A stretch of DNA of 64,000 nt from a bacterium (GTDB taxonomy: Bacteria > Patescibacteriota > Minisyncoccia > Phycocordibacterales > CAIZLB01), in assembly GCA_031411135.1 (NCBI GenBank), contig JANOAN010000009.1, positions 7,175-71,174 of the forward strand. The letters are read 5' to 3'. Positions 54,280 to 64,000 of this stretch are shown in pieces. Positions within the stretch are counted from its first letter, which is position 1, and each line of letters begins with the position of its first letter. The notes below the pieces were generated by a model that had not been told where the DNA came from, ran no database searches, and worked only from the letters and a program-made list of their open reading frames with translations. A program made the position numbers and the translations under genes.

Positions 54280-54351
54280 TCCCCTGTAGCTCAGCGGTAG
54301 AGCAATCGACTGTTAATCGATTGGTCGTAGGTTCGATCCCTACCGGGGGAG
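54280..54351 (+). tRNA. tRNA-Asn (anticodon GUU)
   Basis: 72-nt cloverleaf: acceptor TCCCCTG/CGGGGGA, D-arm GCTC-AGCGGTA-GAGC, anticodon arm ATCGA-CTGTTAA-TCGAT, T-arm GTAGG-TTCGATC-CCTAC, discriminator G. Confidence 0.85.
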
Positions 54352-55899
54352 CATAGAAGTGATTTTAGCCTCAGAATAAGCTTTTGCGTTGTCAGCAAAG
54401 GCTTTTTTGAGTTCGAAATTGTTTTCGAAGCTAAGCACTCGGTCACGGTACTTTCGAACTGGCGTTTTTAGCTCGTACTTCACTGAACCGTCTTTAATGA
54501 TGATTTCACTGAATAGATTTTGCAGAAGCAGTCTTTTGTCACCTGATGATTTTCGTTTGTTGTAGATGCTCTTAGCCCTCTGAGCAAGGTCAAGAATGTC
54601 GATATATGTCTCAAAGTATTCAGCTTCCTGATTTTTGAGTTTCTCTAGCTCAGCTTGGATTTTCTTTTGGTCAGCGATAGCTGTATCGTTCTTGGTTCGC
54701 CACATCTCAGTAGAAATATCACCTGAGAGCTTATCATCGTACATACGGTCTATTTTGACCTGTAGAGAGGTGTATTGAGCGTTCAGTGTCGATATGACAC
54801 TTAGCTTGTACTCAGCTTCTTTCTTGTGATTTTCTTTTATACGCCTCTGTATCTCTTTTGCTTCTTCAGCCGTAATGCTTTCGAATACGCTCATCACATC
54901 AATTAACCTTTTTTCAACACGGTCTTCTCGAACACCACCTTTTTGAGTACAGACTTTGTTGTGTTTACACGCACAATACACTCTGCCTTTTTGCACTTCA
55001 GACGAAATTGTACCCTTACACTCACCACATTTAATCATCTTAGAAAAGATATATTCGTGCCTTTGATAGAAAGGTGCTTTTCCACGAGTTCGCACTTCCT
55101 GAATGATGTCGTAAGTCTCCTTGATAATCAGGGGTTTATGAGTACCCTCACGCAATTCACCTTTCCAAAGGAAGCAACCATAATTGAAAGGGTCTTTAAG
55201 AAACTTCTCAATCTGACTTTTGTATAACCTCTTATCGAACCGAGAGCGAAGACCCACCTCCCACGCTTTTTCTTTAATCGCTTTCATCGAGTAATTACCA
55301 CTCGCATACATCTCAAGCATTTTTCTCGCTTGGTTAAATGTCTTGTCATTTGGTACGAACTCTTTTTTACCTTTCTCACCAACTGATAGATAACCAAGCT
55401 TAAATGAGCCTGGGTATTTACCCTGTGAAGCTTTTTCAGTCTGACCCTTTCGTACTTCTTCAGAAAGGTTATTTGTGTAGAAGCGAGAAATGGCAACTTT
55501 CATATCCCACACAAGGTTTTCGTGTGCTCGTGTATTTCTGCTTACAATAAAGTTTTCTTTGACAAAATGCACCTCGTTTTCACCACTCATTATCCATTCG
55601 CTTATTACCGAGGCGTCTTTGAGATTTCGTGTAAGACGGTCAATTTTCTCAGAGAGAATAAGTTTGATTTTATTCTTTTTTACATAATCAAGCATCTCAT
55701 AAAATACCTTACGGATTTGCTTGCCACTTGCTGACTCAGATATTCTGAATATCTTTACAACATCAATCTGATTTTTATCTGCGTACTGCTCAAGTAAGTG
55801 TTGCTGAGCATCTAGAGAATAGCCAGTATCTTCTTGTTCTTTCGAAGATACACGGCAATATAGAACACATTTTTGACTAAAGTTAGTTGAACTTTTCAT
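54340..55899 (-). mobile_element. Large serine recombinase (integrase). Its last 4 codons overlap the 3' end of tRNA-Asn.
   Basis: N-terminal resolvase domain with catalytic Ser (YCRVSSKEQ), recombinase domain, zinc ribbon C..C...C..C, and coiled-coil C-terminus. 519 aa. Confidence 0.85.
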
Positions 55900-56215
55900 A
55901 GCTTTATTTTATCACTTAATTGCTTATAAATTAACTGCCGAGCTACAACCGAGGTTTACCTTTTTGAATAGGTAACCTTGATATAGCTTCTATGTAGTCA
56001 GAAATGAGATACACGACTACGAGACCCTTTCTGAGAAGACTAGTCATTGGTACTGACTGGAAGTTCATCTTACTCATCTTTTTATCTCTAATCCATATCT
56101 GGAGACCCTACGACACAAATCAGACAGCTCGGTGGCAACCTCGGATAGCCATTTTCCAAGCTTTCGCATTTGTGCCTTAGAAGTCCCTTAATTATTTTCA
56201 CGAAAACTGTCGTCC

Positions 56216-56476
56216 TTAATTTTCGTGTTTCGTAAGAGCATCTTTTTCTTCTCTGCTCTTAAAAGAAGTTTCTTCTGACATTGTAGGCTGTGGCTCACAA
56301 GAGCCTGAAATAGGTTCTCCACTGGTCATTGGAGAACCTATTTCAACCACCTGTGATGTCGCTCGATGCTTTTTAGCATCTTCAAAATCAAAACGAGCTA
56401 ACAAGTCAAAAAACGTGACGATTTCGTCACTTACTTGTACGGCTTCTTTTGTTTTCTGATAACCAGTTAACGACAT
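56216..56476 (-). CDS. Hypothetical small protein (island cargo)
   Basis: 86-aa ORF. Confidence 0.3.
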   Translation of the reverse strand: MSLTGYQKTKEAVQVSDEIVTFFDLLARFDFEDAKKHRATSQVVEIGSPMTSGEPISGSCEPQPTMSEETSFKSREEKDALTKHEN

Positions 56477-56548
56477 AAAGTGTCGTCCGTGGGTGAACCC
56501 TTGGACTACTTTATTGTTGCGTTATTTGGTCTTTAAGTATTCACTGAA

Positions 56549-57367
56549 CTAGCTCAGGTATACCGAAAAAGGTAGTTTCTTTTTCCACTTTGTATAATCT
56601 GCTTTTTTCAGAATGTAACCCTCTAAGGTTTTAAGAGATTTCATATTTTTATTGTGGCTGTGGATAAGCAAAAACCGCACGAGCCATAATTTTGTTAGCT
56701 TCTTATCTTCACCAGTTCTCTTATAAAACTTCTGATATTCTTGCGGATTGATTGTCTGACAAATATTTTTTAGCTGTTCAATACTATACTCAAAGTAGAT
56801 TTCATTTGTGAGCCATTTGTCATCTTTTAAGCCCTCGCTCTGCAACCCCAATTGAGGTATGAAATGCGGTAGATTTCTTTTTTCAGCAATAATCTTTTTT
56901 ATTGAGTACTGAGGTAGAGACAAAAAATCTTTAACCGCCTCGGTCTCAATGCCAGGTGATATTTTGAGATAAATGCAATTATCATTTTCTCCTTGATTAT
57001 GGTCTATCCACTCGATACCACTAAGATTTGAAAGTTTAATCATTTCATCAGTGACACAATCACAAAAGAAAAGTTCAGCCATAAAGTATTTTAACTGAGG
57101 TGTGTTAAGACGATATGCCACCTGAAAATTATCAAGCGTCACTTGTTTCCAAAAACGATAAAAAGCCTTTTTAATACCACCATTCAAGAGTATCTTGAAA
57201 TGCTTTATCCTCTCTGGGAGAGAGCACTCAAGCAAGTAGAAAGTGTCGCCTATATGAAGCTCTTTCCTTATTTTTTGAGCCAGTTTCTTGGTCTTATCAT
57301 TATGGATTTTCTGATAAACGACAAGATTTTTTCTATATAGCTTTTGCTGTAATGGTGACCAGTCCAT
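56549..57367 (-). CDS. Hypothetical protein (island cargo)
   Basis: 272-aa ORF. No motif recognised. Confidence 0.4.
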   Translation of the reverse strand: MDWSPLQQKLYRKNLVVYQKIHNDKTKKLAQKIRKELHIGDTFYLLECSLPERIKHFKILLNGGIKKAFYRFWKQVTLDNFQVAYRLNTPQLKYFMAELFFCDCVTDEMIKLSNLSGIEWIDHNQGENDNCIYLKISPGIETEAVKDFLSLPQYSIKKIIAEKRNLPHFIPQLGLQSEGLKDDKWLTNEIYFEYSIEQLKNICQTINPQEYQKFYKRTGEDKKLTKLWLVRFLLIHSHNKNMKSLKTLEGYILKKADYTKWKKKLPFSVYLS

Positions 57368-57573
57368 AGCACCATTTTAGCAGTTTTAGAGCTTCTAAGC
57401 ACTCAATTATCACTCTGGAAAAAGCCAAGAAAAAGAGAGGCTATTTGTGCAACAAAAGCCAATACCAAAATACTAACTACCAATGCTACTAAGCACGATG
57501 ATACAAAACCAATTATCTCAACAAGATTGAAAAATGCAGATACTATTTTATGTGCTATTGCTTCCATATATCT

Positions 57574-58482
57574 TTACCAAAACTTTAGCTTCCTGAAAAA
57601 CCCAAATACTTTTTGTACGAAGCTTTGCTCGGGTTGTTTTATTTCCTGTTGAAGCGATGAAGTTGTTGTGCTTGTGGCTAGTGTTTTCTCAATCTTTTCA
57701 GTCTCAAATAACTTTGTTTTCTCCTCAGTTTTCTTGGGTATAGTTTTCTGCAATGGAGCTATCTTTGTTGTGATAGTTGGTGTAATTTCTGGAGTTTTTA
57801 CTTCCTCATTTTGTGTAAAAAACTCAGGGTGATACAAGCGATACAGCTCAACGATTTTCAAATAGTTGGCTGGATTGGAGACTTTGAGCAAGTTTATTTT
57901 TGCTGACCATTCATCAGCAGGTAGGGTCTCTAGCCACTCGTACAAATCGCCAATAGTAGCTTGTTTTTGTGGTGCAGTATCTGTTTGATATTTCTGTATG
58001 ACAGTATCTCTTTGCTTGTCATAATACTCATCAATTTCTTTCATCTGCTTCTGTATTTCTTCTATCTGTCTATCTACATCAGCTTGATTATTGACTTGCT
58101 GTTGGTATTGAGATTTTTGAGCCTCAAGAGCACTGATTTGGCTTGAGTATTTGTTATCAATTTTAGTGAACACCTCAGAAGCACCACCCCAAGTTGAGAG
58201 CGTGCCATTCTGAGCTAGCGTACCTGTCGTGTATGTCTTTTCAGTTTCCCATTCCTGACGAAGCTCGGCTATCCTTTGGTCAATGACACTTATGGAAATT
58301 GTAGGACTATTTTGAAGCTGTGACTCTAAGCTCTTAAGGCGATACTCAAGAGCTGATTTTTCCTCTTGCTGTTTGATGTACACATCATTAGGCAAGTAGT
58401 TGTAACTTGTTGCGTATGCAGTAGAAAACACGCTGAAAAAGGCGAATAGAGCCACTGCAAAGGCATATTTATATGTAGGCAT
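57574..58482 (-). CDS. Secreted coiled-coil protein (island cargo)
   Basis: Signal peptide MPTYKYAFAVALFAFFSVFSTAYA, then Gln/Glu-rich coiled coil. Confidence 0.45.
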   Translation of the reverse strand: MPTYKYAFAVALFAFFSVFSTAYATSYNYLPNDVYIKQQEEKSALEYRLKSLESQLQNSPTISISVIDQRIAELRQEWETEKTYTTGTLAQNGTLSTWGGASEVFTKIDNKYSSQISALEAQKSQYQQQVNNQADVDRQIEEIQKQMKEIDEYYDKQRDTVIQKYQTDTAPQKQATIGDLYEWLETLPADEWSAKINLLKVSNPANYLKIVELYRLYHPEFFTQNEEVKTPEITPTITTKIAPLQKTIPKKTEEKTKLFETEKIEKTLATSTTTSSLQQEIKQPEQSFVQKVFGFFRKLKFW

Positions 58483-58741
58483 AGTTGAACACTTCTATAC
58501 CCCAAAACTGGTTTAGCCAAACTGCACTATTAAAAATGGAGAGATTGCAGAAAGGGACAGCCGAGGTGTTCAACTACAACGGGAACCCCAAAGGAGTCCA
58601 ATCATAGAACTCGGACTGCCCCTTTCTGCCTACGATTGGACAGAAAAGGCAAAAAGCCCTCACTCTATGGGTAAAAATCCCTATGTAGTTGAACAAGTAA
58701 AATATAGCACAAAAATAAGCTGAAATTAAGCCCTATTTGCT

Positions 58742-59122
58742 TTAGCTTTTGGAAAGTTCATTTACTCTCTCGATTGACTCTCTCAGCTCATCAGACATTT
58801 CAGGCGAGCGTGACCGATTACGCACTGAGGGACAGCCAAACTCGTGTGGTAGTTTCTTTGATAAATATCGCAAAGCAAAGTGTGCATCTTTCTCTAAGTA
58901 CTCACAAATAGTCTTCCGTGCCTCAAAAATTGGCTTGCTTTTCCACCCTTGTTTTAGCTGTAAAAACTCAGGGTTCTTTTTTTGATAGTTGTAGAGGGTC
59001 TTTTCTGAAATATCTGCGAAAAGACAAGCTTCTGAGTCAGTACAGTCCATATGAAAAGCGGTTTTAAGTTCAGTTAAAACCTTGTCAGTTATTACAGTTG
59101 GTCTTCCTCCTCTTTTTGACAT
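58742..59122 (-). CDS. HTH DNA-binding protein (terminase-small-subunit-like or transposase-like N-terminus)
   Basis: MSKRGGRPTVITDKVL N-terminus is characteristic of phage small terminase / transposase HTH proteins. Confidence 0.4.
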   Translation of the reverse strand: MSKRGGRPTVITDKVLTELKTAFHMDCTDSEACLFADISEKTLYNYQKKNPEFLQLKQGWKSKPIFEARKTICEYLEKDAHFALRYLSKKLPHEFGCPSVRNRSRSPEMSDELRESIERVNELSKS

Positions 59123-59210
59123 ATTGGGAGCTTTTATGTGTTGCCTACACAGGGAGGTGCTTGATAAGGTAATTATATCAAAAAATGGCTGGAAATGTTA
59201 GAATGTTTTT

Positions 59211-59618
59211 ATGAAAGACGACGCTACATTCTTTGTTGGACAAAAAGCTTTTATAAGAAAGGGTGATGAGGTTTTAGTACTTAATGACCCCAAGGAGGGC
59301 TTAGATTTTGCTGGTGGAAAGATACAGGAGGGTGAAGATGATTTGGTTACGTCACTCCAAAGAGAGGTGCGTGAAGAAACTGGACTTGAGATAAAAGTTG
59401 GTAACCCTTTTACTACTTGGGTCAATGAGTTTCCTGTACATCATAGATTTGCTGGTAAAAAAGTATTTCTAGTGGGTTATAAGTGTGAATATGTTTCAGG
59501 TGATATTACTTTGAGCGATGAACACAATAATTTTCACTGGGTCAATAAAGACAATTTTAATGAAGTCAGTGACGGCTCTGTTTTCTTTGACGCCCTTAAA
59601 AAATACTTTACTGAATAA
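59211..59618 (+). CDS. Nudix hydrolase
   Basis: Nudix box GGKIQEGEDDLVTSLQREVREETGL. Confidence 0.8.
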   Translation: MKDDATFFVGQKAFIRKGDEVLVLNDPKEGLDFAGGKIQEGEDDLVTSLQREVREETGLEIKVGNPFTTWVNEFPVHHRFAGKKVFLVGYKCEYVSGDITLSDEHNNFHWVNKDNFNEVSDGSVFFDALKKYFTE

Positions 59619-59621
59619 TCT

Positions 59622-60119
59622 ATGATTTCCTTACGTTTTATCCCTATTTTTGAAGACAAGGAGTTTACTGATGCTGTAGCTGAGTACAAGCAGATTTGGG
59701 AAGCTGAGGGTGTCAGAATTATTGATGCTTTCAAACAGATAACAGGACTCTCTTTTGTTGAAAATCGGATAGCTATTGTTATATACGAGGGCGTGAGTTT
59801 TTCAGGACGTACCCCAAACGATATGATGAAATTGCGTGCAAGCTATACGGCTGATGTTAAAAAGGCAACACTCGTACACGAATTATCTCATCGCTTGCTT
59901 TTTAATCTCAAAAATAGACCTGAGGGTGATGAACACCAAGTCATTAACTTATTTCTTTATGATGTGTGGGTAGAGTTGTATGGCGAGGACTTTGCAAATG
60001 AAATGGTAGAAATTGAAAAAAAGCGAGCTGAAAATTATCAAATTGCTTGGGATTTTGCACTTTCACTTACGAAAGAGCAAAGAAAAGAAAAGTTTTCAGC
60101 CCTGCAAAAAAGCTTATAA
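59622..60119 (+). CDS. Hypothetical protein with an HExxH motif (VHELSHRL)
   Basis: 165-aa ORF, 3 nt downstream of the Nudix gene. Confidence 0.35.
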   Translation: MISLRFIPIFEDKEFTDAVAEYKQIWEAEGVRIIDAFKQITGLSFVENRIAIVIYEGVSFSGRTPNDMMKLRASYTADVKKATLVHELSHRLLFNLKNRPEGDEHQVINLFLYDVWVELYGEDFANEMVEIEKKRAENYQIAWDFALSLTKEQRKEKFSALQKSL

Positions 60120-60121
60120 AT

Positions 60122-61240
60122 ATGACAAATAATCAAGATGAAAACTCAATAAAAATTGTAGAGGCAATTCCTGAAGATGCAAAAGGGATTACTACTGTTT
60201 TGTATAAAACTTGGCTTGATACCTATCCCAATGAGGAAATAGGTATCACGAAAGAAGATGTTGAGGATAGCTACAAAGACGCTTTTACAGAGGAAAAAAT
60301 AAAAAGTCAGCAAGAAAGAATAGCGACCACTCCTGAAAATCAAAGACGATTGGTCGCTAAAAATGGCACTGATGTTATTGGTATTGCCACAATGATACGT
60401 AATAATGATAACAATCAGCTAAGGACGATATATGTGCTTCCTGAGTATCAGGGTAAGGGTGTAGGCTCAATGCTATGGAATGAAATAAAAAAGTTTTGTG
60501 ACCACTCTAAAGACACGATTGTTCAAGTAGCCACCTACAATAAAAGTGCTATCTCTTTCTATGAAAAGCTGGGTTTTGTTGATACTGGAAAGAGGTGGTC
60601 TGATGAAAAATGGAAAATGAGAAGTGGTGCAACTATCCCCGAAATGGAGATGATGATAATAGCAAAAAACCAAAAAGATTGGTCTGAATACTACGAAATA
60701 ACAAAGGCTAAGCCACCCACAAAACTTCTTGTAAAAGCTCTTGAATATGTCACTGATAAAGGCAAAGCTATTGATATTGGAGCTGGTGCGTTGAAAGACA
60801 CACGATACCTGCTTGAACAGGGTTTTGAGGTCACTGCGATTGATAAAAGCCCTTTAATGGAGCAGGGAGTCAAAACACTAGAAAATGATAAGGTTCAGGC
60901 TTTTACGACCTCATTTGAAGATTTTGATTTTTCTGAAAATAAGTATGATATTGCCTCTGCAATGTTTTCTCTGCCATTCACTGAGCCAGCACATTTTGAG
61001 ACAGTCTTTATCAAGATAAAAAACTCACTCAAGAAAGGTGGTGTGTTCTGCGGTCAATTCTTTGGAATGAATGATGAATGGTCAAAAAATCCTAAGATGA
61101 CTTTTCATACTGAAGCTCAAGTAAAAGAATTGCTCAATGGTCTTGAGGTGCTTTCTTTTAAGGAGGTTGAGGAAGATAGTACTACGGCAAACGGCACACC
61201 AAAGCATTGGCATATTTTCCATATAATCGCAAAGAAATAA
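60122..61240 (+). CDS. GNAT N-acetyltransferase fused to a class-I SAM-dependent methyltransferase
   Basis: N-terminal half has RTIYVLPEYQGKGVGSMLW...ISFYEKLGF (GNAT motifs A/B). C-terminal half has AIDIGAGALKD (MTase motif I) and a D/E acidic loop. Start set at MTNNQDEN. Confidence 0.6.
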   Translation: MTNNQDENSIKIVEAIPEDAKGITTVLYKTWLDTYPNEEIGITKEDVEDSYKDAFTEEKIKSQQERIATTPENQRRLVAKNGTDVIGIATMIRNNDNNQLRTIYVLPEYQGKGVGSMLWNEIKKFCDHSKDTIVQVATYNKSAISFYEKLGFVDTGKRWSDEKWKMRSGATIPEMEMMIIAKNQKDWSEYYEITKAKPPTKLLVKALEYVTDKGKAIDIGAGALKDTRYLLEQGFEVTAIDKSPLMEQGVKTLENDKVQAFTTSFEDFDFSENKYDIASAMFSLPFTEPAHFETVFIKIKNSLKKGGVFCGQFFGMNDEWSKNPKMTFHTEAQVKELLNGLEVLSFKEVEEDSTTANGTPKHWHIFHIIAKK

Positions 61241-61243
61241 TTT

Positions 61244-61774
61244 ATGAACTATATCTATCACTGGGTTCCAAAAGATATGCAAGGAGATGTACTTTTCCCT
61301 CTGAACACTCTTAAAGACACGCACCCTGATTTGTATGATAAGGAAGCAAGCAAATATGTAGGACGAGAACAAATAATGCAACACAAGCTTCCTGTTTTGA
61401 ATTGCTTATGGAACGACGTATTGCATTTTTCCGCCGTTCACCCCTCAGAAGTAAAACAGGCTTTAATTGACGCTGGTAGAACAAAACCTTTTGATATTGA
61501 GTTTTTTGAAGTAGACCCACATCTTTTGACCACTGAAAATACAATTGTTTATTTATACAAGCACAGCAGTATGGCTGACAAATTGAAAGAAGATAATTTT
61601 GCGAAGTATAATCCTGATGATATGGCTCAGTATTCTGTATTGCCACAAGAAACAAAAGATTATTATAAAGAAATAATTTCTCAGGGTAAAAATCCGCTAC
61701 TATTTCATCGAGTACCGCACATACTTTTCAGAGGCTCACTCGACACGTCAAAGATTAAAAGAATTAAAGCTTAA
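61244..61774 (+). CDS. Hypothetical protein
   Basis: 176-aa ORF tightly packed in the cargo operon. Confidence 0.35.
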   Translation: MNYIYHWVPKDMQGDVLFPLNTLKDTHPDLYDKEASKYVGREQIMQHKLPVLNCLWNDVLHFSAVHPSEVKQALIDAGRTKPFDIEFFEVDPHLLTTENTIVYLYKHSSMADKLKEDNFAKYNPDDMAQYSVLPQETKDYYKEIISQGKNPLLFHRVPHILFRGSLDTSKIKRIKA

Positions 61775-62374
61775 ATGACTGAACCTCAAAACTTTACCCC
61801 TGCATATTTAGTAGCTTGTGCCGAACTGTATCACTTAGATTTTATCGCAAGCAATTTCACAAGGTCTGCAAAACTCCTACACGAGCAAGGAAATGGCTCT
61901 GAACATTCACAGTCATTTCACCTATTGGTATCAATGGCTTTTGAGCTTTTTCCTAAAATCCTCATCGGCTGTGAGACCTGTCTACTTCACCAAAACGACG
62001 TAACTCTGACGGTAGACGAAATAAGAGCAAAGATTGTTGATGAACACAGAAAAGTTGGTCATAATCTGAAAAAGCTTTTTGAGAAGTATCCTGACCTTAT
62101 GCAAGAGCTTGAAATTGAAGCCGTCACGAGAGTCCCTGATGACCCAAGCAAAGAATGGTTTGTAAGCGAGTACCGATTTAAGGTTAAAGACTATCAGTAC
62201 CTACTAAGTATCAAAGACGTGGAAGCTGTGAGGTACGGCTCATTCTCACAAAATCGTGATGTGGCTATGGACTGCACTGGTGATGAAAAGATTTTGAACC
62301 TGCTTTTGAAACTCCAAGAGTTTGTGCATAAAAAGAAATTAGAGACTATTCAGCAGATGAGGGCTACAATATAA
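61775..62374 (+). CDS. Hypothetical protein (possible HEPN-like R-x-x-x-H motif, weak)
   Basis: 199-aa ORF starting 1 nt after the previous stop. Confidence 0.3.
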   Translation: MTEPQNFTPAYLVACAELYHLDFIASNFTRSAKLLHEQGNGSEHSQSFHLLVSMAFELFPKILIGCETCLLHQNDVTLTVDEIRAKIVDEHRKVGHNLKKLFEKYPDLMQELEIEAVTRVPDDPSKEWFVSEYRFKVKDYQYLLSIKDVEAVRYGSFSQNRDVAMDCTGDEKILNLLLKLQEFVHKKKLETIQQMRATI

Positions 62375-62477
62375 AAATTAGACGGTAAGCAAAGACCTAA
62401 CATCTCGTAAAGTGCTTGTAATATAAGGGTATTCTTTGAGCCAATCTATAGTTAGAAAGTCGTCCTGTAAAGCGAGC

Positions 62478-62580
62478 ATTGTAGACAAACCTCTTTTACT
62501 GTTGTAATATCCCAGCAGTTCTTTAAACCTCTGGCTGTATCTTTTAGGGCATTTAGGTGTCTTGAAAGATGCAGCCACAA
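62478..62580 (+). repeat. ~100-bp promoter/leader module, copy 1 (tagaca-17-taatat then a 10-bp stem hairpin)
   Basis: About 93% identical to 63069..63168. Lies about 40 nt upstream of an ATG at 62622. Confidence 0.65.
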
Positions 62581-62621
62581 CTCTAAACTTAGGCTGTTGC
62601 CACATACAAAACCACTGTCTT

Positions 62622-62945: not shown

Positions 62946-63068
62946 CGCCCGCCGACAACTCATACTGAGCCTGTCGCAGCGGGCTTTTGTATTTTTATAC
63001 CCAGGAAGAAAACTTCCTACCCCTCCATCAAGCAGGTTCGAGCATCCTCCCACCTTTGGTGCCTTGTA

Positions 63069-63168
63069 GACAAAATTCTTTTCCCGTTGTAATATCCCAA
63101 CAGTTCTTTAAACCTCTGGCTGTATCTTTTAGGGCATTTATGTGTCTTGAAAGATGCAGCCACAACGG
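63069..63168 (+). repeat. ~100-bp promoter/leader module, copy 2
   Basis: Direct repeat of 62478..62580. Lies about 40 nt upstream of gene 63206..63502. Confidence 0.65.
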
Positions 63169-63502: not shown

Positions 63503-63649
63503 CAGACACCAGCCCCAAGGCCCCATTCAGCGTTAGTCCCCTCGACTCACGTTGTTGGGGCCTTTCGTTTTTATGTGAGTAAATAAGTTCGAACCCCCTC
63601 CCGCCTTTGGAGCCGTGGTACGTCTAGGAAGATTTGGTATAATACATTT

Positions 63650-63859: not shown

Positions 63860-64000
63860 TTTTTGCTTACTTCCCCACCAAGTAGGTTCGAACCCTCCAG
63901 AGGGCTGCTGTTTGTATTCAATCGCTTTGCTCTTGAACAAACAGGGAGCATCCTCCCACCTTTGGAGCCAGCTATTGACTTATCTTATATTTATGTTATC

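Follow-up and report, generated by a model that had tools for sequence, protein, structure and literature searches.

Anatomy of the five-gene block

A block of five forward-strand genes (g1 to g5, positions 59211-62374) was analyzed in a 64,000-nt stretch of a Patescibacteriota genome (GenBank assembly GCA_031411135.1, contig JANOAN010000009.1, positions 7,175 to 71,174), which is called the window here and whose first letter is position 1. The genes encode a Nudix hydrolase, a small protein with an HExxH motif, a GNAT acetyltransferase fused to a methyltransferase (MTase) and two proteins without annotation (Table 1). An earlier annotation made from the letters alone, hereafter the sequence-only reading, had described the block as a cargo operon within an island, and its five open reading frames (ORFs) and their coordinate pairs were confirmed.

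Table 1. Coordinates of the block, of its segments and of the surrounding features in the window (HTH, helix-turn-helix).
Feature	Positions	Strand	Description
g1	59211-59618	+	135 aa ORF, MutT-like Nudix hydrolase
g2	59622-60119	+	165 aa ORF, minimal gluzincin-like HExxH protein (predicted), unannotated family
g3	60122-61240	+	372 aa from the first ATG at 60122; GNAT fused to TehB-like MTase
g4	61244-61774	+	176 aa ORF, conserved unannotated family
g5	61775-62374	+	199 aa ORF, rare unannotated protein
Variable 5' segment	59205-60664	+	g1, g2 and GNAT half of g3; blastn colinearity with the nearest relative L178 breaks at 59204/59205 and 60664/60665
Conserved core	60665-62478	+	MTase domain, g4, g5 and about 100 nt downstream; 86% DNA identity to L178 over 1814 nt
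Block upstream region	59130-59204		Probable promoter/leader; 81% identical to L178 394-468
Small-terminase-like HTH protein, 126 aa	58742-59122	-	phrog_4102 at 1.6e-12; divergent from the block
Four familyless island ORFs (86, 272, 54, 302 aa)	56216-58482	-	No significant Pfam, NCBIfam or PHROG match
Large serine recombinase, 519 aa	54340-55899	-	Pfam Resolvase 3e-25, Recombinase 8e-9, Zn_ribbon_recom 4.6e-5
tRNA-Asn(GTT)	54280-54352	+	Island left border; ARAGORN, Rfam RF00005 70.8 bits

The spacers between g1/g2, g2/g3, g3/g4 and g4/g5 measure 3, 2, 3 and 0 nt, and no terminator-like site was found within the block. With all genes on one strand, this makes the single transcription unit put forward by the sequence-only reading plausible, and we infer from the arrangement a common mRNA on which the five genes are probably co-transcribed. 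Since 22 of 60 same-strand junctions in the host genome are of 5 nt or less, tight packing is the rule there, and four tight junctions in succession (about 0.37^4 = 0.02) are only mildly unusual. Promoter-like sites were no more frequent in the block than in shuffled sequences. A Shine-Dalgarno-like GGAGG was found ahead of none of the five starts in the 25 nt before each (59186-59210, 59597-59621, 60097-60121, 61219-61243 and 61750-61774), and these stretches are A/T-rich.

The mechanical ORF of g3 opens earlier than the first ATG, at a TTG at position 60047. Since the Logan contig L001 (8239 bp), an independent assembly, is identical to window positions 54307-62545, the long fused ORF does not stem from an error in this assembly. 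On that contig, the gene caller placed the start of g4 at 61277 instead; the start at 61244 was retained because M1, Y5, H6 and P9 are conserved across the family. None of the five ORFs is disrupted, and each retains the residues invariant in its family.

Domain identities and predicted structures

The g1 product matches the Pfam NUDIX family (PF00293; 1.3e-13, 51.5 bits against a cut-off of 21.1), and its closest solved relatives are MutT/Nudix proteins (2e-5). The Nudix box (G-x5-E-x7-REUxEExGU) is present as REVREETGL, with one extra residue in the x7 spacer. The MutT equivalog of NCBIfam (TIGR00586) was not reached, with a score of 28.8 against 97.9, and all other Nudix equivalogs were likewise below cut-off. 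The protein also matches the PADLOC candidate PDC-S07 (2.7e-15).

In g3, Pfam places the GNAT domain at residues 46-159 and a class I, TehB-like MTase at residues 180-372, with overall extents of about 10-175 and 180-372, respectively. The N-terminal half scores 59.8 bits with PF00583 (cut-off 20.7) and 58.3 with PF13673, and falls short of the RimI equivalog (NCBIfam TIGR01575, 47.6 bits against 86.4). The C-terminal half exceeds the cut-offs of PF13649 (39 against 27) and of PF03848, the TehB family (27.9 against 20.4), but is below those of the two NCBIfam TehB equivalogs (40.5 against 218 and 25.7 against 219.5); it also matches PADLOC mad2 (1.1e-9). TehB itself is a tellurite/selenite MTase, and its solved structures (4dq0 and 2xva) rank high among the PDB relatives of this half. 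The g3 family differs from TehB by an N-terminal W-x-EYY...KPP motif of its own and by being often fused to other small enzymes.

The fusion is rare. When 1.84 billion representative proteins were scanned in full with HMMER, 5103 matches were obtained, with 2338 relatives at an E-value of 1e-10 or lower. Among the best 150, which were examined, only P0250 (374 aa) and P0251 (364 aa) span both halves of g3, in agreement with Pfam. These two proteins come from two other lineages and are 43-44% identical to g3, and the remaining best matches mostly stand alone, as MTases of about 190 aa or GNATs of about 180 aa. The architecture is thus as uncommon as the sequence-only reading had supposed, and a literature search returned nothing on GNAT-MTase fusions of this type. 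Since the stand-alone MTases begin 5-13 residues ahead of the W-x-EYY motif, where g3 has M176-M178, the fusion point corresponds to a former gene start. The MTase family appears as a fusion hub, with GNAT (P0250, P0251), NUDIX (P0256), GrpB (P0262) and DUF1653 (positions 478-1353 of locus L178, the nearest relative of the block) as partners, and the GNAT family was also found fused to a serine hydrolase (P0263).

Bifunctional antibiotic-modifying enzymes made of fused adjacent group-transfer genes, e.g., AAC(6')-Ie/APH(2'')-Ia, offer a comparison. Like them, g3 holds two independent transferase domains in one ORF, joined at a former gene boundary, and its stand-alone halves are far commoner than the fusion. 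It differs in the nature of the domains, which are a RimI-like GNAT and a TehB-like S-adenosylmethionine (SAM) MTase.

No family in Pfam, NCBIfam, PHROGs or PADLOC and no PDB sequence was matched by g2. Its homologues form at least 274 clusters, none of them with a Pfam domain over this region. The HExxH motif (H86, E87, H90) is conserved across 69 sequences, with E87 and H90 never replaced and H86 kept in at least 90%. The AlphaFold2 model has a predicted local distance difference test (pLDDT) score of 96, and Foldseek matched it to the catalytic domains of M1 aminopeptidase/leukotriene A4 hydrolase, M4 vibriolysin and M30 lugdulysin with a probability of 0.9-0.99, at E-values of just 0.025-0.3 and TMq values of 0.4-0.5. 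As modelled, g2 is a minimal gluzincin-like protein and a predicted zinc hydrolase: it shares with the M1 and M4 gluzincins a conserved HExxH on a helix, a small β-sheet before it and a helical bundle after it, but consists of 165 aa only, without the flanking domains. For the third zinc ligand there are only candidates (E104, H105, D114 and E132). Two other assignments were discarded, DUF2268, where only the HExxH helix aligns (probability 4.7%), and SprT, where the Pfam SprT-like family is reached at an E-value of 0.08.

Five g2 homologues (P0201, P0221, P0194, P0237 and P0241), which come from soil metagenomes and Sphingomonadales and measure about 184-221 aa, carry an N-terminal lipobox or signal peptide, because of which the protein is predicted to work there as a stand-alone exported enzyme. 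The forms in Patescibacteria have no signal peptide. In some of the forms from soil and Sphingomonadales, HEHGH stands in place of HELSH.

The g4 family is also absent from Pfam, NCBIfam, PHROG and PADLOC, and it is widespread. Its homologues form 172 clusters, with relatives in 236 GTDB species of Patescibacteria, Ignavibacteria, Bacteroidota, Chloroflexota, Thermoleophilia, Cyanobacteria, Elusimicrobiota and DPANN archaea, and it also occurs in Cytobacillus and Bacillus (Bacillota) and in Thioclava. The closest homologues of g4, as of g5 and g2, are in metagenome-assembled genomes of Nomurabacteria, Taylorbacteria, Paceibacterota and Pacebacteria, which places the host among the Patescibacteria. 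Twelve residues are invariant in the family, including H6, N21, Y38, R41, W56, D58 and H159.

The AlphaFold2 model of g4 (pLDDT 93.7) has no match among solved structures at an E-value of 0.001 or better, and no PDB sequence was matched in a profile search. Nearly all of its best weak fold matches are ADP-ribosyltransferases (ARTs; DarT, CopC, PltA, cholera toxin and Arr), at E-values of 0.6-2.5 and TM-scores of 0.33-0.39, and the weak matches in a viral structure library include DUF3626 and an RNA 2'-phosphotransferase. Like ARTs, g4 has an invariant His on the first strand and a near-invariant His on the second core strand; its distance from the DarT, cholera-toxin-like, Arr and Tpt1/KptA types is seen in these same scores, with no Foldseek E-value below 0.6, and a conserved catalytic Glu could not be placed. 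A Tpt1/KptA-like identity was discarded: the YH.. and V-H-[LF]-S motifs are similar by eye, and hhalign against three Tpt1 sequences gave a probability of 0.6%. An ART-like fold of g4 is thus taken as a lead from the model and not as a finding. Of the two unknowns that were modelled, g2 is predicted to be gluzincin-like and g4 gave only these weak matches. Both families, uncharacterised so far, now have high-confidence models and defined conserved residues.

For g5, only nine homologues were found, with no Pfam family and no solved relative. The R-x3-H motif that the sequence-only reading had taken as HEPN-like turned out to be [RK]-x3-H, with R in six and K in four of the ten members, so that within the motif only H96 is invariant. 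An R-x4-6-H is not conserved in this 10-member family, and the HEPN assignment was dropped. Kinship with DUF4145 was also rejected, as hhalign against a DUF4145 protein adjoining one g5 homologue gave no relation.

An anti-phage defence module acting through a nucleotide signal or nucleic-acid modification, which the sequence-only reading had offered as its alternative in the nucleotide-signal form, is extremely unlikely. The block is borne on an island with a recombinase, g1 and the MTase half of g3 match PDC-S07 and mad2, and GmrSD_N, DUF4145, ParE or nSTAND genes are found near some homologues of g5 and g4. But the PADLOC matches reflect generic, single-domain similarity to Nudix and class I MTase proteins, and g2, g4 and g5 match nothing there. 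The block holds no cyclase, sensor, nuclease or membrane effector, g5 is without a conserved HEPN motif, the homologues lie mostly among metabolic and housekeeping genes, and no relatives of g4 or g2 were found in IMG/VR. The same IMG/VR result and the generic nature of the PHROG matches led us to reject a phage origin. A paper of 2026 in which small serine recombinases serve as markers of defence was also considered as a route to a defence assignment, and was set aside because it mentions none of the families of the block and deals with small, not large, recombinases.

Mosaic junctions and recurrence of the parts

The nearest relative, L178, shares with the window the conserved core (Table 1), and its g4 and g5 proteins are each 91% identical to those of the window. 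Where the window has 1.46 kb with the Nudix gene, g2 and the GNAT half, L178 carries a 0.3-kb DUF1653 segment, whose reading frame runs on into the same MTase, with the join at the identical residue (sequence KDWSEYYEITKAKPP). The breakpoints fall at the first start codon of the block and at the GNAT/MTase boundary. Since L178 is colinear on both sides and has different content in between, the 5' half of the block is a swapped segment. The comparison catches a gene fusion in the making, by a cassette-like replacement whose ends coincide exactly with a start codon and with a domain boundary, and such replacements show how the tightly packed genomes of the Candidate Phyla Radiation generate bifunctional enzymes.

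The arrangement resembles integron cassette arrays in that small accessory genes (GNAT, Nudix, MTase and unknowns) are co-directional, promoterless and tightly packed, with order and content varying between relatives. An integron-like array was nevertheless rejected, because spacers of 0-3 nt leave no room for attC sites and the sole recombinase is of the large serine type and not a tyrosine IntI integrase; exchange took place at a start codon and a domain boundary here.

A recent mosaic could also mean that decaying or silent island genes have come together by accident, without selection for their joint expression, the fused g3 being a recent read-through on its way to a pseudogene. The lack of Shine-Dalgarno-like sequences before the five starts and the MTase remnants in relatives (see below) agree with this explanation, which is nonetheless very unlikely: the five ORFs are intact with their family-invariant residues, the GNAT::MTase architecture is kept in two other lineages at the identities given above, and the region upstream of the block is conserved in L178.

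No other locus among the 181 fetched carries the five genes together; the most complete, L041, has four of the family types, with a Nudix that is not orthologous. The block thus fails to recur as a unit and its homologues are scattered, an outcome that the sequence-only reading had itself named as evidence against its proposal. As for the co-location of parts, the MTase-g4 pair recurs, sometimes with g2, but g5, the other fusions and most g2 homologues stand alone.

In a g4-centred survey of 76 species-level loci of about 16 kb, 134 immediate neighbours spanned 151 Pfam families, and the commonest neighbour type was methyltransferases (6 of 134; three TehB-like and three RsmB/F). When MTases were counted with family-specific hidden Markov models over these loci, the TehB-like MTase was present in five of the 76, always as the immediate neighbour of g4: intact and upstream in L018, L019 and L041, as a remnant in L020 and convergent in L046. 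On the g4 tree, these cases are spread over at least three separate branches, and with about 16 genes per locus the chance of three independent adjacencies is about (1/8)^3. The MTase-g4 adjacency is therefore non-random, and it is the sole statistically convincing pair of a loose guild comprising g4, MTase, small zincin, GNAT and Nudix. It provides a concrete starting point toward the function of g4. On the other hand, MTase remnants lie beside an intact g4 in L020 and L017, so g4 does not depend on the MTase.

Surveys were also centred on g2, g5 and the fusion. Among 82 metagenome loci with g2, many of them on short contigs, one had g4 and one a distant GNAT, and a 74% identical g2 homologue adjoins Ddl and UvrABC. 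The g5 homologues occur in Patescibacteria arrays of unrelated small enzymes or beside GmrSD_N, and none was found with g4 or the MTase in this survey. The P0250 fusion lies between tRNA synthetase genes, without g1, g2, g4 or g5. Around g4 in Ignavibacteria lie GNATs, an isochorismatase and a gene resembling quinone reductases, and in L042 the same GNAT family (59% identical) is found two genes after g4.

Two Pacebacteria-type loci (L011 3755-12579 and L012 1766-8093) hold g5 homologues in long co-directional arrays of accessory enzymes beside ftsZ/ftsA. These arrays include Flavodoxin_2, glyoxalase, SRPBCC, DUF4145, OmdA, two NUDIX, EamA and HhH-GPD proteins, and that of L011 adjoins a resolvase.

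On balance, with a confidence slightly above even, the block is considered a co-transcribed mosaic island cargo of independent small enzymes, in which the MTase and g4 may share a substrate. As a system, it would be ordinary mobile-island cargo of small accessory enzymes. Its older part would be the 3' core, with the TehB-like SAM MTase domain followed by g4 and, in the closest strains, also g5. The 5' segment with the Nudix gene, the gluzincin-like g2 and the GNAT would have landed directly upstream of the MTase and been joined to it in frame, giving the GNAT::MTase, and the large serine recombinase would have integrated the island next to tRNA-Asn. The products would be a MutT-type housecleaning pyrophosphohydrolase, a zinc hydrolase, an acetyl-CoA-dependent transferase, a SAM-dependent transferase and the g4 enzyme. 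Each of them would most likely modify or clear small molecules (xenobiotics, antibiotics, damaged or unusual metabolites) alone, the MTase and g4 being the only pair likely to share a substrate.

Several loci weigh against this independence. In L041, the order is MTase-g4-NUDIX-g2, all tight, with a Nudix protein 25% identical to g1. In L116, a 402-aa fusion of g2 to an MTase of a different family overlaps g4 by 4 nt and adjoins a large serine recombinase, and L091 carries g2-g4; these are the three other loci in which g2 co-occurs with g4. On a Cytobacillus oceanisediminis plasmid (L179; NZ_CP085393, 5995-7434), a g4 homologue is followed by a class I SAM MTase, and on a Thioclava plasmid (L180; CP155823, 5177-6537), one is divergent from a DUF2268 Zn protease; this MTase and this protease belong to families other than those of g3 and g2. 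Shuffled order together with alternative fusions is a classic signature of functional linkage.

These loci would instead suit a modular multi-enzyme pathway around g4, in which g4, the TehB-like MTase and g2 act on a common substrate, with Nudix and GNAT enzymes as accessories. Candidates for this substrate are nucleotide-linked or peptide-nucleotide compounds or, if g4 is ART-like, an NAD-derived adduct trimmed by the Nudix enzyme. Subsets of these genes are shuffled in unrelated branches of the g4 tree (L041, L116, L091, L018/L019 and L042), fusions join MTases to GNAT, NUDIX and g2, and the best weak PDB fold matches of g4 point to ARTs. However, about 70 of the 76 g4 loci and 81 of the 82 g2 loci, many of the latter on short contigs, are without the partners. 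The L041 Nudix protein is distant from g1, the MTases of L116 and Cytobacillus are of other families, the MTase decays beside an intact g4, and the nearest relative is without g1, g2 and GNAT. The ART-like signal is also weak (E 0.6, TM 0.37), and the Tpt1 profile comparison was empty. Such a pathway is considered a doubtful though serious possibility. Its most specific form is improbable, namely that g4 is a new transferase that uses NAD or nucleotides, has a divergent ART-like fold and, with a dedicated TehB-like MTase and in some lineages a gluzincin and a Nudix enzyme, constitutes a modular modification or detoxification system exchanged by Patescibacteria on serine-recombinase islands.

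The g4 homologues of cultured bacteria are 33-35% identical to g4, and one in a related record is annotated as "group-specific protein". The Cytobacillus and Thioclava strains are usable for experiments on g4.

Island setting

The block is best explained as cargo of an island of about 8.1 kb beside tRNA-Asn in a Patescibacteria (Paceibacteria-like) chromosome, and the placement inside an island by the sequence-only reading was borne out. The stop of the serine recombinase overlaps the 3' end of the tRNA, and housekeeping genes (PriA, Def, Fmt, HPF, MreB, RseP, ProS and PBP2) lie to the left. From the tRNA, the recombinase, the four familyless ORFs, the HTH gene and the five genes follow in order, and the block lies about 8 kb into the island. 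As in other tRNA-integrated serine-recombinase islands, the recombinase abuts the tRNA 3' end, housekeeping genes flank one side and the cargo varies between close strains; here the host is a member of the Patescibacteria, the cargo is mostly unannotated and only a 6-nt match was found at the presumed ends. A literature search returned nothing on serine-recombinase islands in Patescibacteria.

Homologues of the four familyless ORFs were present in none of the fetched loci. The HTH protein has a 36% identical homologue at the same position in L178, and is therefore regarded as part of the island backbone or a regulator. The stretch of L178 that corresponds to the upstream region of the block (394-468) lies immediately 5' of the first gene of L178.

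The 6-nt match is GAGCAT, present at the tRNA-Asn 3' end (54349-54354) and at 62474-62479, exactly where the homology to the nearest relative stops. This match is a candidate for the att core used by the serine recombinase, for which six nucleotides are weak evidence; around the match, 11 of 18 positions are identical.

To the right of the block, a 106-nt direct repeat (93% identical) occurs at 62476-62581 and 63061-63166, and its first copy marks the end of the Logan contig L001 as well as that of the DNA homology to L178. A 24-nt motif, GAGCATCCTCCCACCTTTGG(T/A)GCC, is found in three copies (63040-63063, 63591-63614 and 63946-63969), two of them preceded by a T-loop-like GGTTCGA, and a T-arm-like piece at 63882-63904 is 83% identical to the T-arm of tRNA-Asn. 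Rfam gave no match to these repeat and T-arm-like elements at an E-value of 1 or better. They separate small ORFs, and GC content is higher there (0.42-0.45). This stretch is probably where the island ends on the right, or what remains of tandem integrations.

Another g4 island was observed in Paceibacterota (L002/L018; DASYKZ010000011, L002 63-9532), where two adjoining large serine recombinases are followed by MTase-g4. It further carries a PIF1-family helicase and a diversity-generating retroelement, with an RVT_1 reverse transcriptase plus bAvd.

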